This document shows, in pieces, positions 10,943-63,933 of a DNA stretch of 64,000 nt (positions within the stretch are counted from its first letter, which is position 1; every line of letters starts with the position of its first letter). The notes under the pieces are model-generated. The model ran no database searches, was not told the DNA's origin, and saw only the letters and a program-made list of their open reading frames with translations. Source of the stretch: Escherichia phage vB_EcoM_G2540-3; sequence record MK327944.1. One strand, written 5' to 3'. A program made the translations under genes and the position numbers.

Positions 10943-12361
10943 TTATGGATAGGTATAAATGATACCAGTTTCTAAAGCAGTTTTATGAATGATGTATCCA
11001 TTGCGCGATTCTTGAACATCAACTTCTGGATAGTCTTTCATCATCTTCTGAAGAGTGTAACGATGCAGGTAGTATTTACTATCTGGATCTTCAGTTTTCC
11101 AATCTTTACCTTCTTCAGTCATTTTTTGGATTTCATCCATAACCCACCAACCGCACCAGATATAAGCTGAGCTACGATGTGGAAGAGGATGAACATAAGG
11201 TAATTCACCTTCTGGTTCCGGAGCAACTTTATCAGTCACTTGAACTTGACCTGTGGCTTTAACTGTTTTACTATCATAGTCAGTTGCTGTAACGACAGCA
11301 GTAACTTCAATAGTTTGACTTCCAATAGATGAGGTATCAACAGTATATACGTTAGTTGACCCTTCCACAGGAGAAGAATCTTTCTTCCATGAGTAAGTAA
11401 TTTGTGCTGCTTCAGGTGCGCCATTAACATTAGCAGTAAATGTAGCCGAAGCATCTTGCTGAACATTAATAGAAGGAGGAGTCAATGTAACCTGTGGATT
11501 CATTGTCTTCTTATTAACTGTCAATGATACTTCATTGGAAGTAACTTCCTTTTCATTATAATTTTCTGCAGTTACTTGGGCTACGCATTTAATTCTTTTT
11601 ACTCCACTTGTAGTTGGAGTATAGTTAAATGTAGAGTTAGTTTCTCCACCAACTTGTGAATCATCTACATACCACTGATACGTAGCAGACGCTCCGTCAG
11701 GTTGAGAAGCTAATGCAGCAGTAAATTGAACCGGGGTTCCAATTACTCCAGCAGCAGGACTAGCAGGAGTTACTGCCAAGGTAGTTGTCTGTGTCTTTTT
11801 ATTAACTGTCAATGATACTTCATTGGAAGTAACGCTCAGTGCATCATAATCTGTCGCAGTTACTTGAGCTACACACTTAATTTTTTTAACTCCGCTTGTA
11901 GTAGGAGTATAATTGAATGTAGCAGAAGTTGCTTCGCTCACAGGAGAACCGTCAACGTACCATTGATACGTAGCAGATGCGCCCGATGGCTGTGAAGCTA
12001 AGGCAGCAGTAAATTCAACGGCTGTTCCGATTACTCCTTCTGGAGGACTATTAGGAGTTACAGCTAAAGTAGTTGTCTGTGTTTTATTTTGAACTGTAAT
12101 AGTTGTACTAATTTCAGCTGTTTCAGCTTCAGAATCAGGAATAGTATTTGTTGCAACTACCTTAATAGTCTTTTGACCAGCAGGTCCTTTTAATACATAA
12201 TCAAAAGTTGCTGCTGATCCTTCTTGGGGAGCATTATCTACGCTCCAAGCATAGGTAATAGTTCCACCTCCAGTTTCACCACTGGGTGTAGCAGTAAACT
12301 GCTTGGTTTCATCAATAACCCCTGTTGGTGTTTTAGGAGTTATATCAACTGTAAAAGCCAT
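10943..12361 (-). CDS. hoc: highly immunogenic outer capsid protein Hoc with an extra Ig-like module
   Basis: 472 aa; N-terminus MAFTVDITPKTPTGVIDETKQFTATPSG... and C-terminal capsid-binding region PEPEGELPYVHPLPHRSSAYIWCGWWVMDEIQK as in T4 Hoc; internal 96-aa module duplicated. Confidence 0.9.
   Translation of the reverse strand: MAFTVDITPKTPTGVIDETKQFTATPSGETGGGTITYAWSVDNAPQEGSAATFDYVLKGPAGQKTIKVVATNTIPDSEAETAEISTTITVQNKTQTTTLAVTPNSPPEGVIGTAVEFTAALASQPSGASATYQWYVDGSPVSEATSATFNYTPTTSGVKKIKCVAQVTATDYDALSVTSNEVSLTVNKKTQTTTLAVTPASPAAGVIGTPVQFTAALASQPDGASATYQWYVDDSQVGGETNSTFNYTPTTSGVKRIKCVAQVTAENYNEKEVTSNEVSLTVNKKTMNPQVTLTPPSINVQQDASATFTANVNGAPEAAQITYSWKKDSSPVEGSTNVYTVDTSSIGSQTIEVTAVVTATDYDSKTVKATGQVQVTDKVAPEPEGELPYVHPLPHRSSAYIWCGWWVMDEIQKMTEEGKDWKTEDPDSKYYLHRYTLQKMMKDYPEVDVQESRNGYIIHKTALETGIIYTYP
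11505..12080 (-). repeat. in-frame tandem duplication (2 x 288 bp) of an Ig-like module inside hoc
   Basis: Units 11505-11792 and 11793-12080 both begin gtctt(c/t)ttattaactgtcaatgatacttcattggaagtaac; protein copies KTQTTTLAVTP...SNEVSLTVNKK. Confidence 0.75.
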
Positions 12362-25283: not shown

Positions 25284-27393
25284 TTATCCTTGAACGAACT
25301 TGTAAGGCATGTTTGCAATATCTATGCAAGACGCAATAATTCCAAGAGATGATTCTACTTTCTGTTTAACATTTGATGAAACAAATGATGCAAAGTCAAC
25401 TCTATCTTCTATATCACCTGTCATTGTAACCAATTCACCAGTTTCCATTAAACGGTCACCGTCATAGATTACCGATTCGGTGAGTTCTTCTGTGGTCATA
25501 ACTTCAGCTTGAATAAGCTTGTTGTTAGTTCTAACTGTTCCATCGTTGTAAGATGCATCGGTTATTTTATTAACTTTGACCATTAATCCACGTGGCAAAA
25601 TGACTTCCATTTCATTTGAAGGCGCTAAACTTCCACCGGGTAAAACAACATTGACCTTATCAGCCCCAGTAATAACCCGCTAAACTTCCACCGGGTAAAA
25701 CAACATTGACCTTATCAGCCCCAGTAATAACCCATCCAATTCCAACTAAATTATCGCTAGAATTTACTAGTCCTTCATCAGTTTTATCAATAGAAACACT
25801 TAGACGCTTTTCGTCTGGTAAAACACCTATAGATGAATCAGTCATCCAAGTACCAAAAATATTTGGATATAATGATGTTGACACAAAGTTTCTAAAATAA
25901 AAAACTCGATTTTTTACCATTGCTTCATATATTGAAGGTAACATTCGTTGTGAACGATACAAAGTAATACCTTTTGGTAATCGTTCACCATTTTTAAAGG
26001 CTGAATCTAAATTATCAATGGCTTGTTCTATTTCAGGTGCTGTTAAAATACTTGTACGCTCATCTGGATTATATAATCCCAAAAGAGCATTATTTATGTC
26101 TACATATCCTGAACCTACATATTCACGAATTCCGCGTTTTTGCGCTGGTGTGTATTTAGATGAATCTTTATTTTCGACTATAGGATGTAATGACCATCCA
26201 GCGGTAAGAGCATATCCACGTAATTCTCTTCGAATAATCTTTGTTTTTATTGCATTCCAAGAATTTTGCACTAACTCATTATTCGCAGCGTCTTGATTTA
26301 AATGCGAATGTCTGTTAATATTTCTTTCAAACCAGGCACCTTTATATTTTTCTAAAGTATCATCGACGATAGAAGCAATAGTTTCTAAAGTTTTTATTGA
26401 AGTAATAGATTCTTTTCGTAATTTTTCTAAAGCTTTATTTTTTATTTCTGCATTAATAATGGATTCTTTATCTTCAGGAATTATAGAAGCTTCTCTGAAT
26501 GCCATCCCAGCTGTAACACTGCTAAGAGCATTCTCTAGTGCAAATCCTGAAGTAGAAATTACCGTTAATTCATTAGAATCAGAAATTAAAGGCGCGTCCG
26601 CTGGTTTATTTAATTCTGCCGCTGAAGCCTCAAATTTTTGAAACATCGGTGTTTCAAATCTAGAAGATTCCAATGACTGACTTTGTGCAATTGCTCTACG
26701 GGAAATTTTAACTTTAACGATTACAGCTTGGTCAGAACGTTTATCATTTTCTTGTGCAATAGATGCTGCAATTGCCTCATTTTTAGTTACTTGAGCTCCA
26801 GTATCTTTATTGATATAAACATCACCGACCTTCGATTCAACTTTAGTAAAGAGCTCGGTACTAATTTCCGGAACCCCTGGAATGTCTTCTAGTGATACAT
26901 TTTTGCGATGTATAAGAATATATGCATACTTTTTATCATAATCCCAGAGTTCCTTAAGAAGGACGTATCTGCCACCTGAACGACTACGGATAAGTCTATC
27001 AGCAATAACTTGAATTTGTCGAGCTTGGCCAGCAGTTTTAGACTTAAGAATACGAAGCATACAAGCATCAATTTTATACTGACGCATTGTTTGCATTGCA
27101 ACAGTAAAAACCGAATTGATATAATTAATTGGGCTTGGACCAAGACCTTTCAATTTAGCAATTGAACCTTTAGCGGTTAATGTAAAAGGAACAATATGCA
27201 TCATTTTATCGCCCATCTTTAAATCACGATTAGTATCACCTCCAGATGTATAGGTACATAAACGAAAGCCTGGTTGTTCAATTGCGTCATCAACATGAAC
27301 TGAAAAAATTTGCGGTATTTTCTTCTTTGGATTTAAGTTTGTAATCGGAAGAGTAGTATCTTCGTCAAATAATTCTGTAATTAGTTCCATCAT
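25284..27393 (-). pseudogene. alt: alt (capsid-packaged ADP-ribosyltransferase), frame broken by a 55-bp tandem duplication
   Basis: 577-aa ORF 25660-27393 with R...STS motif, then 108-aa ORF 25284-25610 in another frame; deleting one repeat copy restores a 684-aa frame. Confidence 0.8.
25624..25733 (-). repeat. perfect 55-bp direct tandem duplication inside alt
   Basis: gctaaacttccaccgggtaaaacaacattgaccttatcagccccagtaataaccc at 25624-25678 and again at 25679-25733, 100 percent identical. Confidence 0.95.
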
Positions 27394-59208: not shown

Positions 59209-62157
59209 ATGGCTACTTTAAAACAAATACAATTTAAAAGAAGCAAAACTGCAGGTCAACGTCCTGCTGCTTCAGTATTAGCCGAAGGTGAATTGGCTAT
59301 AAACTTAAAAGATAAAACAATTTTCACAAAAGATGACTCAGGCAGTGTTATAGAATTAGGTTTAAAATATGGAGGAACAATTGATGGTTCTTTAACTGTT
59401 AATGGAAATATAATTGGAAATTTAACAGGTAACGCTGCAACTGCAACGAAATTAAAAACAGCACGAAAAATTAATGGTATATCCTTTGATGGGTCAAAAG
59501 ATATCACGCTAACTCCATCTGACATAAATGTCAATAGCACAACGTTTATAAAAAATAATGGCGAATTACCTGTTGATGCTAATTTAGATACGTATGGGCC
59601 TGTTGAAGAATATCTTGGAGTTTGGTCGAAAGCAACTTCAACCAACGCTCAACCAGCAAATAAATTTCCAGAAGAAAATGCTGTAGGTGTGCTAGAAGTA
59701 TTTGTGGCCGGTCAATTTGCTGGTACTCAGAGATATACAACTAGATACGGAAATGTTTATATTCGTTCCTTGACTGCTACATGGAACGGAGTAAACGGTC
59801 CGTGGAGTGCGTGGCGAAATATTCAATCTGGTACTCGTCCACTGTCAACAACGATTGATCTTAATGATCTAGGAGGCGCTGAACACCTTGGTTTGTGGCG
59901 AAATAGTTCAAATTCCATTGCTACCTTTGACAGAAATTTCCCAGAAGAAGGATCGTCCGCTCAAGGACTTTTAGAAGTATATGAAGGTGGAAACTATTCT
60001 CGCACACAGAGATATACGACCAGATTTGGTGTTGTTTATACTCGTTGTCTTGCTGCTGCGTGGGATGCTTCTGCGCCTAAATGGGGACCTTGGCAACAAG
60101 TCGGTAATGTCACACCGGCGACTTTCTATGACGGAGATCTGAATGATTTTAAAACTCCTGGGTTATATAATATTTTAGGCACTGATGCCGTTATTAACTG
60201 TCCTACCGGTGAAGGTTTGCCGACTGTTATTGTTGGTTTGCTGGAAGTTAAACAGCGTGCTTCTGGCGGTGCTATTTTCCAAAAATTTACTACTGCCGGA
60301 ACGGGTGCAACTACTCGCGATCGTATTTTTGAGCGTGCATATACTGGTGGTGTGTGGGGTGCATGGAACGAAGTATATACATCTTACTCTCTGCCAATTA
60401 CTTTAGGTATGGGTGGTATTAAAACTCAATTAGCGGAGCTAGATTGGCAAACATTTGATTTTGTTCCTGGTAGTATGTTTAGCGTTCCTTTGAACAAAAT
60501 AAAGAACATGCCAGCTAATATGAATTGGGGCACGATTGACGGAAACTTAATTATGTTTTCTGTTGGTCCTAGCGAGCACACCAGCACAGGACGTACTGTT
60601 CAGGTTTGGCGTGGAACTGTATCCCAGACAAACTATCGTTATTTTGTCGTTCGTGTGTTCGGTAATTCTGGAAATAGAACTTGCACAGTTCGCCGTGTTG
60701 TTCTTGAAGATGGATCACATACTTGGACTGCTCAACAAAACTTTAGGGGATTGTTGAATATCACTGCTGCTGTTAATCTTGGTGCTAATCAGAAAATTTC
60801 ACTTGCTCCAGGAGCATATATTCAAGCCCCTGCTAGCGGTTCTGGTTCTAATACTTACGCGAATCAGAATACTACCATTGCACCATTATATCAGGCCATT
60901 GACGATTCAAATAAAAACCAGTTTGCGCCAATTGTTAAACAGAAAAACACTGTAACAAATATTACTATGGCTTCTGGTATGGATATTGCTAGTTCAGAAT
61001 ATCGTATCGTTGCTCAGGGTGATTTATCCGCTACTGGAACTACAGCCACTAAATTAGCTACATGGCGTTTCTTGCCGTCTGGCCGATTCATGTCACAAAG
61101 CCGAGTTTATGCTGGCGCAGCATTCTTGAACACTGATGGTAACATTGCTGGTTCAATCTGGAAGAAATACAACGATGCAACCAATTTAGATGCTGCCTTG
61201 AATACTCGCCTAGGTAAAGGCGGTGATACGATGACAGGTCGGTTAACAATCAATGCACCTAATGATTCTATCGTATTATCAACAACTGCTAGTAATTCTT
61301 TGCATATTCGCGGTGACATAGACGGGACTGGTAACTGGTATATTGGCAAGGGTGGTGCTGATAATTCGCTAGCATTTTATAGCTATGCTACTCAGGCGGC
61401 AGTACATATCACAAACAATGGTGAGATTTCGCTAAATCCACAAAATATCGCAATGGTTAACGTTAACCGCGATCGTGTACACATTAACGGTTCTGGATGG
61501 ATTGCTAGACAACCGGGTGATTGGGGCAACCAATGGCGAGTAGAAGCTCCATTATTCGTCGATCATGGTTATGTTTCACAGGATTGTTATTATCCAATTA
61601 TTAAAGGAAGAAGTGTAATCACCAATCAAGGGTTTGTAACTGCCGTCGATCTTGGTATTCGTCGTGTCCCTAACAATTGGGGGCAAGCAATTATTCGTGT
61701 TGGATCTGCAGAGGCATCGCCAGCGGCTGAACACCCTAACGCGGTATTTGAATTTCATTACGACGGTACTTTCTATTCTCCTGGTAATGGTAACTTTAAC
61801 GATGTGTATATTCGTTCCGATGGTCGTCTTAAGATTAATAAAAAAGAGCTAGAAAACGGAGCACTTGAAAAAGTATGTCGACTGAAAGTTTATATTTACG
61901 ATAAAGTTAAGTCTATTAAAGACCGTAGTGTTATTAAACGTGAAGTTGGTATTATTGCTCAGGACCTTGAAAAGGAATTACCGGAAGCTGTATCTAAAGT
62001 TGAAGTTGATGGATCTGATGTTCTGACAATTTCTAACTCTACAGTGAATGCTCTTTTAATTAAGGCTATTCAGGAAATGAGTGAAGAAATTAAAGAATTG
62101 AAAACGCCTCTCTTTACTAAAATTGCTCGCAAAATTAGTAAATATTTTAAATTCTAA
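59209..62157 (+). CDS. 37: long tail fibre distal subunit gp37 with C-terminal intramolecular-chaperone-like domain
   Basis: 982 aa; last 113 aa begin [20 protein letters not shown], resembling S74-type autoproteolytic chaperone domains. Confidence 0.9.
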
Positions 62158-62163
62158 CAACAA

Positions 62164-62178
62164 GGGGGAAATGCCCCC
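62164..62178 (+). terminator. hairpin after gene 37
   Basis: ggggg-aaatg-ccccc followed by tttgg. Confidence 0.4.
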
Positions 62179-62193
62179 TTTGGAGTATAAATT

Positions 62194-62973
62194 ATGGCAG
62201 TAGTTGGAGTTCCTGGCTGGATTGGAAGTTCAGCCGTAAATGAAACGGGTCAGCGCTGGATGAGTCAAGCAGCTGGTCAATTAAGATTGGGTGTTCCTTG
62301 CTGGATGAGTCAATTTGCAGGTCGCTCAAGAGAAATTATTCATACACTTGGAGCAGACCATAACTTCAATGGTCAATGGTTCCGAGATAGATGTTTTGAG
62401 GCAGGTAGTACACCTATAGTGTTTAATATCACTGGAGATTTAGTATCATATTCTAAAGATGTTCCTTTATTCTTCATGTACGGAGATACACCGAATGAAT
62501 ATGTTCAGTTGAATATACACGGCGTAACGATGTATGGACGTGGCGGTAATGGCGGTAGCAATAGTCCTGGTTCAGCTGGAGGTCATTGTATTCAAAACGA
62601 TATTGGTGGGAGACTAAGAATTAATAATGGCGGAGCTATTGCTGGAGGCGGCGGCGGCGGCGGCGGCGGCAACAGGGGTAGACTATCCTTTGACGGCGGA
62701 GGCGGTCGTCCATTTGGCGCTGGTGGGTCTTCCTCTCATATGAGTGCTGGTGCAACCAGCGGCACTATTTACGCTCCGGGTGCAGGATCTGTCGGTGAGG
62801 GGTCTCTTAGTGCATATACAGGCGGGAATGGCGGTGAAGTTGGCTCCGCAGGAGGTAGATGTAATACTCACGGTACCGGTACAGAATATGACGGCGGTGC
62901 TGCTGGTTATGCCGTCATAGGGTCTACACCGACATGGCAAAATGTTGGAGCAATATATGGTCCAAGAGTATAA
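62194..62973 (+). CDS. 38: T2-type receptor-recognising adhesin gp38 (glycine-rich motifs)
   Basis: 259 aa with several poly-Gly blocks ([49 protein letters not shown]) separated by variable segments. Confidence 0.85.
62647..62670 (+). repeat. (GGC)8 trinucleotide run encoding poly-Gly in gp38
   Basis: ggcggcggcggcggcggcggcggc, preceded by gga, gives nine consecutive Gly. Confidence 0.95.
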
Positions 62974-63003: not shown

Positions 63004-63660
63004 ATGGCAGCACCTAGAATATCATTTTCGCCCTCTGATATTCTGTTTGGTGTTCTAGATCGCTTGTTCAAAGATAACGCTACCGGGAAGGTTCTTGCTT
63101 CCCGAGTAGCTGTCGTAATTCTTTTATTTATGATGGCGATTGTTTGGTATAGGGGAGATAGTTTCTTTGAGTACTATAAGCAATCAAAGTATGAAACATA
63201 CAGTGAAATTATTGAAAAGGAAAGAAATGCACGCTTTGAATCTGTCGCCCTGGAACAACTCCAGATAGTTCATATATCATCTGAGGCAGACTTTAGTGCG
63301 GTGTATTCTTTCCGCCCTAAAAACTTAAACTATTTTGTTGATATTATAGCATATGAAGGAAAATTACCTTCAACAATAAGTGAAAAATCACTTGGAGGAT
63401 ATCCTGTTGATAAAACTATGGATGAATATACAGTTCATTTAAATGGACGTCATTATTATTCCGACTCAAAATTTGCTTTTTTACCAACTAAAAAGCCTAC
63501 TCCCGAAATAAACTACATGTACAGTTGTCCATATTTTAATTTGGATAATATCTATGCTGGAACGATAACCATGTACTGGTATAGAAATGATCATATAAGT
63601 AATGACCGCCTTGAATCAATATGTGCTCAGGCGGCCAGAATATTAGGAAGGGCTAAATAA
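63004..63660 (+). CDS. t: holin T
   Basis: 218 aa; single N-terminal TMD VAVVILLFMMAIVWY and large periplasmic domain. Confidence 0.95.
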   Translation: MAAPRISFSPSDILFGVLDRLFKDNATGKVLASRVAVVILLFMMAIVWYRGDSFFEYYKQSKYETYSEIIEKERNARFESVALEQLQIVHISSEADFSAVYSFRPKNLNYFVDIIAYEGKLPSTISEKSLGGYPVDKTMDEYTVHLNGRHYYSDSKFAFLPTKKPTPEINYMYSCPYFNLDNIYAGTITMYWYRNDHISNDRLESICAQAARILGRAK

Positions 63661-63933
63661 TTATTTGTTCGTATACATTTCTAGATATCGATATACACCC
63701 TCAAAACCCTCGTTGAATTCATCGATGAGGGTTTTCTTATCTTCTTGAGTTAATTCAGAAACAATTTTACGAAATGAATTCTGATTTAACTTTCTACCTT
63801 CATGCGTTACTCCAATCTCATTAAGAAATGCAATAAAATTAGCACGATTCTCAACAATATCTTCTCTGGAAAATTTAATCAAAATAGATGCAACAGTAAT
63901 AATTTCACGAACTGTATCAATGTTTTTATTCAT
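63661..63933 (-). CDS. asiA: anti-sigma70 factor AsiA
   Basis: 90 aa; MNKNIDTVREIITVASILIKFSREDIVENRANFIAFLNEIGVTHEGRKL... Confidence 0.95.
   Translation of the reverse strand: MNKNIDTVREIITVASILIKFSREDIVENRANFIAFLNEIGVTHEGRKLNQNSFRKIVSELTQEDKKTLIDEFNEGFEGVYRYLEMYTNK

Follow-up and report, generated by a model that had tools for sequence, protein, structure and literature searches.

A nine-glycine run containing a perfect (GGC)8 repeat in the gp38 adhesin of phage vB_EcoM_G2540-3 is likely a structural helix of conserved length beside a predicted OmpA-type specificity loop

Gene 38 of Escherichia phage vB_EcoM_G2540-3 encodes a T2-type receptor-binding adhesin, part of whose long glycine block is encoded by a perfect (GGC)8 microsatellite. 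It lies in a 64,000-nucleotide stretch of sequence record MK327944.1 that was analysed here as a whole (the window). We consider it likely that the glycine block is a structural helix in an OmpA-type adhesin and that its length is fixed by purifying selection. The long glycine run of gp38 keeps its length of 9 residues in T-even phages, in a Krischvirus, in phage-plasmids and in large Salmonella contigs, and its codons drift.

The ORF list and a reading of the sequence place gene 38 at 62194-62973 on the plus strand, from ATG to TAA, with a product of 259 residues. The gene is already known, since the public protein QBO65661.1 (Escherichia phage vB_EcoM_G2540-3) is identical to its product and near-identical relatives have a characterised receptor. 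Pfam analysis assigned residues 47-259 to GP38 (PF05268; 2.8e-69, 233.7 bits) and residues 1-42 to Gp38_N (PF21721; 9.5e-21, 74 bits), the curated cut-off being 25 bits for both families; at E ≤ 0.001 the protein matched adhesin families only and had no match to the T4-type gp38 chaperone family. The gene order g37-g38-t-asiA is canonical for T-even phages and matches the NBG2 annotation, and the ORFs and their Pfam matches place gp34, gp35, gp36 and then gp37 upstream of gene 38. The features referred to below are the following.

59209-62157, plus strand: gene 37, distal long tail fibre subunit of 982 residues whose tip carries gp38 (ORF; Pfam gp37_trimer and Peptidase_S74; synteny with NBG2)
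61816-61992, plus strand: C-terminal Peptidase_S74 (intramolecular chaperone) domain of gp37, residues 870-928 (Pfam PF13884, 5.3e-11)
62182-62185, plus strand: GGAG ribosome-binding site, 8 nt 5' of the gene 38 ATG (sequence reading)
62194-62319, plus strand: N-terminal attachment domain of gp38, residues 1-42, which docks on the gp37 trimer tip (Pfam Gp38_N; Trp9, Trp22, Trp37)
62536-62583, plus strand: first glycine-rich motifs and a short variable segment (GRGGNGG, SNSPGS, AGG), residues 115-130, with approximate boundaries (conservation and segment map)
62644-62670, plus strand: 9-Gly block, residues 151-159, homologue of the central PGII helix 3 by alignment to S16 and PP01
62647-62670, plus strand: perfect (GGC)8 microsatellite within the 9-Gly block (Tandem Repeats Finder, 8.0 copies, 100% matches)
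62671-62694, plus strand: variable loop NRGRLSFD, residues 160-167, equivalent by alignment to PP01 loop-B and to Trojet's HVS2; OmpA 'type 2' motif
62692-62694, plus strand: GAC codon of Asp167, a Gly in relatives and the first Gly of their 'GGGGGRP' motif (A at 62693, G in NBG2, EV240, FL12 and kvi)
62695-62727, plus strand: next glycine-rich motif, residues 168-178 (invariant G168-G171, P173, G175 and G178)
62728-62892, plus strand: remaining variable segments and glycine motifs, residues 179-233, with no EV240 differences (segment map)
63004-63660, plus strand: holin t (Pfam Phage_holin_T, 1.9e-117)
63661-63933, minus strand: AsiA (Pfam)

A GGGGG-N5-CCCCC hairpin at 62164-62178, just 5' of the GGAG, also lies within the 36 nt that separate the stop of gene 37 from the start of gene 38; it has no terminator-type T-run on the plus strand. 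A scan for sigma-70 promoters and terminators around gene 38 gave none above shuffled expectation except for two hairpins, namely the g37-g38 hairpin read on the minus strand and one after t.

The solved adhesin structures provide a framework for the glycine block. In phmmer searches gp38 matched PP01 gp38 (PDB 9v85, 1.3e-77) and S16 gp38 (6f45_D, 9e-53), and an AlphaFold2 model built from 70 homologues (pLDDT 88.9) was aligned by Foldseek to 9v85_C with a TM-score of 0.87 and an rmsd of 2.1 Å and to 6f45_D with a TM-score of 0.78. By these matches gp38 has the three-domain fold of the solved structures, with a predicted polyglycine-II sandwich. Together, the Pfam, PDB and model matches bear out the original prediction that the protein is a T2-type adhesin and not the T4-type assembly chaperone, and the ORF, the conservation and the segment map confirm its description of a 259-residue gp38 with glycine motifs split by variable segments. 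There are 63 glycines in the 259 residues, 47 of them among the 127 positions from 115 to 241. Among 70 gp38 sequences the glycine clusters are invariant at 115-120, 129-130, 152-156 and 168-178 (in the first motifs G115, R116, G117, G118, G120, G129 and G130) and glycine is at least 90% conserved at 211-220, with variable segments between the clusters. W9 does not vary in these 70 sequences, and the conservation of W22 and W37 is 90% or higher; in S16 gp38 the three Trp residues of the attachment domain insert into gp37 and anchor the adhesin (PMC6851490). The N-terminal helical bundle would serve for docking on gp37, and in the C-terminal polyglycine-II sandwich the glycine motifs would form the rigid core from which the intervening variable loops contact the receptor.

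Within this fold, the long run appears to correspond to a defined structural element. S16 residues 151-GGGGGGGG-158 form helix 3, the long central PGII helix, the main chain of which is fully hydrogen-bonded to its neighbours (PMC6851490). The HMMER alignment of the window gp38 to S16 and PP01 has no gaps across the glycine run, and in 70 diverse gp38 sequences G152-G156 never vary and G157 is retained in at least 90%. By this alignment, the 9-Gly run is the putative homologue of S16 PGII helix 3, a core element abutting a specificity loop. PP01 loop-B (residues 158-170) is located at the distal tip, and chimera analysis implicates it in OmpC adsorption (PMC12892980). The next loop of the window gp38 is its equivalent, which agrees with two further points of the original prediction, that the run encodes a structural glycine motif and that it lies beside a specificity loop. 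Deletions of GRM2/3/4 and HVS1/2/3 have also been sought in T6, and none were recovered among 220 phages screened.

We then considered the repeat at the nucleotide level. The uninterrupted (GGC)8 is present just as first described, with 100% matches in Tandem Repeats Finder; the block that it encodes is larger. The repeat is in frame, (62647-62194)/3 = 151, so that its codons specify residues 152-159, and the preceding GGA at 62644-62646 is Gly151; the block is therefore 9 residues long (151-159), not 8. It is the sole perfect microsatellite of at least 8 units within the 64-kb window. GGC accounts for only 15% of the glycine codons in the long ORFs of the window, and (GGC)8 is therefore not a chance outcome of genome codon usage. 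The share of GGC is, by comparison, 62.5% across 25 distinct family runs, at which usage the probability of at least 8 consecutive GGC among 9 codons is ~0.03; (GGC)8 is therefore unremarkable within the family. FL12 independently has (GGC)8, L013 has (GGC)7 and Pu-Krd-SF1 has (GGC)6; of the 18 distinct 9-codon runs, 12 have a longest perfect stretch of just 1-3 codons, and run positions 7 and 8 are GGC in 17/18 and 18/18 of these runs. The NBG2 run differs from that of the window by one silent change, a T at 62655 that makes the third GGC a GGT, and the EV240 run is interrupted (GGA GGT GGC GGC GGC GGA GGC GGC GGC). The perfect repeat would thus be one synonymous state in a neutral walk, a single silent T-to-C step from the nearest relative. 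The GGC bias itself could have come from common descent, from translation or from use of the run as a patch for recombination.

Run lengths were compared among 242 distinct gp38 proteins. A protein search, cluster listings and annotated phage records replaced an IMG/VR protein scan that had yielded 13 loci, too few for statistics. The run is exactly 9 glycines long in 161 of the 165 distinct proteins of the two closest subfamilies (125 of 128 with an NRGRL-type loop and 36 of 37 with a T6-type loop), and no run longer than 9 was found among these 165, a constancy that rests on deposited or assembled consensus sequences and is silent on minority variants within a lysate. The four exceptions are contractions, to 8 Gly in P0156, 6 in P0165 and P0106 and 4 in P0079, each a single sequence found on one contig where counted, and they show that the run is capable of length change. 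The 24 genes of AIA-Gly-run architecture that were fetched (85-99.7% nucleotide identity) encode 9 Gly without exception, and their codons vary from gene to gene as mixes of GGC, GGT, GGA and GGG. The same length was found in a phage-plasmid copy and in a copy on a ~224-kb Salmonella contig. Eleven sampled full-length hits in deposited phages aligned 141 nt onto 141 nt across the run region, and among 49 sampled partial (T6-type) matches there was no net indel, 43 aligning 80 nt onto 80 nt up to the run end. A metagenome pattern scan (left flank plus at least 6 Gly codons) returned five loci, four T6-type with 9 Gly and one PP01-type with 8, and no new run-length variants. Other gp38 subfamilies are functional with runs of 5-8 Gly, which indicates that glycine is not strictly necessary at the outer positions of the block.

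The constant length and the drifting silent sites argue for purifying selection on a structural element and not for a tuning device, and selection is the cause that we infer for the constancy from these sequences. The original proposal implies that run length is a meaningful variable; with 161 of 165 proteins at 9 Gly, zero expansions and free silent sites, the comparison of consensus sequences does not support this part of it. In its full form it would make the repeat a contingency locus, in which hypermutable (GGC)8 changes the loop base by in-frame slippage and gives rise to adsorption variants useful to the phage. The repeat is indeed perfect and in frame, the ninth glycine of the block aligns with PP01 Tyr159, a loop-B residue with an adaptive change, and the rare contractions in assemblies and the 5-8 Gly of other subfamilies point in the same direction. 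However, all four length variants are singletons, and the mostly interrupted runs of the relatives imply that the perfection of the repeat is not maintained. Repeat-number polymorphism among close relatives, as expected of a contingency locus, was not seen beyond these four. In addition, experimental host-range adaptation has proceeded by point substitutions with no run-length changes: PP01 evolved by loop substitutions only (Y159H, Q161H, N163H, A123E/V and T207I), and Q206L alone switches RB51/RB68 between OmpF and OmpW (RB68 from OmpF to OmpW; bioRxiv 10.64898/2026.04.02.716166). We therefore regard a contingency locus as very improbable.

Several candidate length changes were considered and rejected. 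Cluster members of 257 and 258 aa, with the exception of P0156 (8 Gly), have their indels in the N-terminal domain or elsewhere and are not run variants. The truncated gp38 of HP3 (P0180) might be taken for a slippage frameshift, but the RefSeq record NC_041919.1 begins inside the glycine run (positions 1-77), its annotated gp38 of 187 aa leaves the family after the 8th Gly, and a record or assembly boundary is the likelier explanation. HP3.1 and HP3.2 differ by an 11-nt deletion that falls near the N-terminal end of the gp38 coding sequence, outside the run; in HP3.2 (directed evolution; L040, against L041 for HP3.1) the annotated CDS restarts downstream, and there is also one G-to-A change near the second variable loop.

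In three further sequences, P0023 (L038 and L039; ENA and Logan records), P0027 and P0031, the first long glycine run is fused to the 'RPFG' of the next motif. The whole intervening loop is gone in these short contigs, which resemble deletions between two glycine-codon repeats. Together with the contractions, these loop-deleting fusions suggest that glycine-codon repeats occasionally misalign. Perfect microsatellites in general slip more readily, and a perfect (GGC)8 should do so modestly more often than interrupted runs. Slippage at the run would probably occur as a mutational event, with its products being removed by selection; point changes in the loops, together with recombination at conserved motifs, would drive the evolution of specificity.

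The receptor can be proposed with some confidence. The earlier view that it cannot be assigned has been overtaken by work on EV240, the gp38 of which differs from that of the window at two residues, T112A and D167G, with no other amino acid differences, and confers OmpA specificity experimentally. EV240 was identified as an OmpA/HepI phage by RB-TnSeq, and moving its gp38 into CM8 switched the receptor from Tsx to OmpA (bioRxiv 10.64898/2026.04.02.716166). FL12, FL18 and FL20, which form a narrow-host-range 'type 2' group, also require OmpA (PMC12032242). The loop after the run, of the NRG[RK]L[VI]F type, is common to these three phages and the window gp38, and the other variable segments show few differences from FL12 and FL20. 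[quoted passage not shown]

Asp167 is the last residue of the specificity loop after the run. No other of the 242 gp38 sequences has Asp here, at a column where Gly is at least 90% conserved (70 sequences), and the residue is the sole amino acid difference from NBG2 gp38. Gly167Asp could be a natural change of affinity or specificity, or a consensus error. As the one feature not met in relatives, it is a candidate natural specificity-modifying change. A bolder combination, in which (GGC)8 slips more than interrupted runs, minority 8- or 10-Gly adhesins arise and, with Gly167Asp, retune the recognition of OmpA loop variants, would equip a phage adhesin with a small 'loop-length dial' that works in frame, and we consider it highly unlikely.

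Both the perfect run and the Asp167 codon might instead have entered the consensus by error, in a stretch of the deposited assembly that is GC-rich and of low complexity. The only two differences from NBG2 in 780 nt, at 62655 and 62693, are 38 nt apart and both fall in the glycine-codon region, and the break of the HP3 record within the run, with a gp38 that departs from the family there, indicates that the region does trouble assemblies. However, both differences are substitutions and not indels, the one at 62655 is silent at a site that varies freely in relatives, and the reading frame and the rest of gp38 are intact, with the same protein in the public record. An artefact is thus very improbable.

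The GGC-rich run might also, in addition to its structural role, act as a DNA-homology patch for swapping the downstream loops, which would help to explain why it is GGC-rich at the nucleotide level and not just glycine-rich. GRMs have been proposed and used as crossover points (Tetart 1996/1998, as cited in later work). A cross between CM8 and EV240 exchanged only the part 'from HVS2 onwards' (bioRxiv 10.64898/2026.04.02.716166), which places the crossover 5' of HVS2, in conserved sequence that has the run as its final 27 nt. In nearly all sampled records, Megablast homology to T6-type genes was 91-98% up to query position 80-81, approximately the run end, and then stopped. The pairing of near-identical gp38 with unrelated gp37 in NBG2, the presence of such gp38 in a Krischvirus and phage-plasmids, and the 62.5% GGC of the run against 15% genome-wide are compatible with such an anchor. 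On the other hand, none of the 14 chimeras of Trojet et al. had a crossover between GRM1 and GRM5, 27 nt is little homology for recombination, translation or shared ancestry could equally give the GGC bias, and the near-constant GGC at positions 7 and 8 fits descent. We regard this added role as possible but rather unlikely.

The gene can be annotated as a gp38 long-tail-fibre adhesin with predicted OmpA specificity, which helps phage choice for cocktails. Population data are needed before a perfect triplet repeat in such a structural position is taken for a generator of diversity.

Two other repeats were observed elsewhere in the window. A perfect 55-bp tandem duplication at 25623-25733 splits an Alt-like ADP-ribosyltransferase gene into ORFs of 577 and 108 aa (25660-27393 and 25284-25610, minus strand), both of which match PF03496, at profile positions 1-153 and 161-195. 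The 10 best-matching phage records listed are without the duplication (361 nt aligned onto 306 nt) and mostly carry an ADP-ribosyltransferase annotation; either the duplication truly disrupts the gene or it arose in assembly. At 11504-12097, a 288-bp unit is present in 2.1 copies with 79% identity (TRF score 743).

Genes of this kind are also found outside Tequatrovirus. Genes for gp38 with the 9-Gly, NRGRL[VI]F and 5-Gly motifs were observed at L042:2720-3502, L043:8001-8783 and L028:151-930, and the window gene shares ~90% nucleotide identity with the gp38 genes of the Krischvirus phages kvi/FL20. Other copies are more divergent, at 65-68% protein identity; some are carried by non-mobilizable E. 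coli plasmids of ~110-120 kb and others by contigs from Salmonella samples that reach ~224 kb. The E. coli plasmid copies adjoin ParA-like, toxin-antitoxin and DnaB-like genes, and these plasmids are probably phage-plasmids; the 4.5-kb segment used as query had matches in 724 plasmid records, and in 121 of these the match covered at least 80% of its length. On the Salmonella contigs, gp38 is followed by a 167-aa ORF with a Gp38_N domain only.

Comparison with known systems places the window gene among the T2-type adhesins. Bacterial contingency loci are phase-variable simple-sequence repeats. Gene 38 resembles them in having a perfect short tandem repeat in a surface-interaction gene; it differs in that the copy number does not vary among relatives, where an interrupted repeat is usual, and because the repeat unit is in frame there is no on/off switching, unlike in contingency loci. 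The gp38 of T4 shares the gene name and the map position after gene 37, but it is an unrelated assembly chaperone that is absent from the virion. The Tsx adhesin of T6 is 82% identical in protein sequence and shares the N-terminal domain and the 9-Gly run, whereas the loop after the run is YYSPFPQMRLTF, the downstream loops are different and the receptor is Tsx. PP01 (9V85) and S16 (6F45) gp38 have the three-domain polyglycine-II sandwich with a long central glycine helix, but their runs are 8 Gly long, their loops are different, with a PP01 loop-B of 13 residues against 7-8 in the window gp38, and their receptor is OmpC.

The 'type 2' gp38 of FL12, FL18 and FL20 shares the loop motifs and the 9-Gly run, and FL12 also has (GGC)8 (PMC12032242); FL12 and FL20 differ from the window gp38 by 18-21 amino acids, FL12 carries another N-terminal attachment variant and FL20 has a Krischvirus genome. 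The nearest DNA relatives of gene 38 among 406 matching phage records are NBG2 (99.7%), T4_ev240 (98.6%) and IME340 (95.5%). EV240 (T4_ev240, LR597657) gp38 is likewise 259 aa, with a 9-Gly run and loops identical bar one residue; it has Ala112 in place of Thr112 and Gly167 in place of Asp167, and its run is interrupted. The gp38 of vB_EcoM_NBG2 (MH243439) lies between g37 and t, as in the window, with 1 amino acid difference; it has GGT at the third GGC position and Gly167, and its gp37 is mostly unrelated. Alignment of the gp37 proteins of the window (59209-62157, 982 aa) and NBG2 (L014:722-3961, 1080 aa) is confined to ~60 residues at the N terminus and ~130 at the C terminus. The near-identical gp38 beside an unrelated gp37 implies that gp38 moved as a module independent of the fibre shaft.
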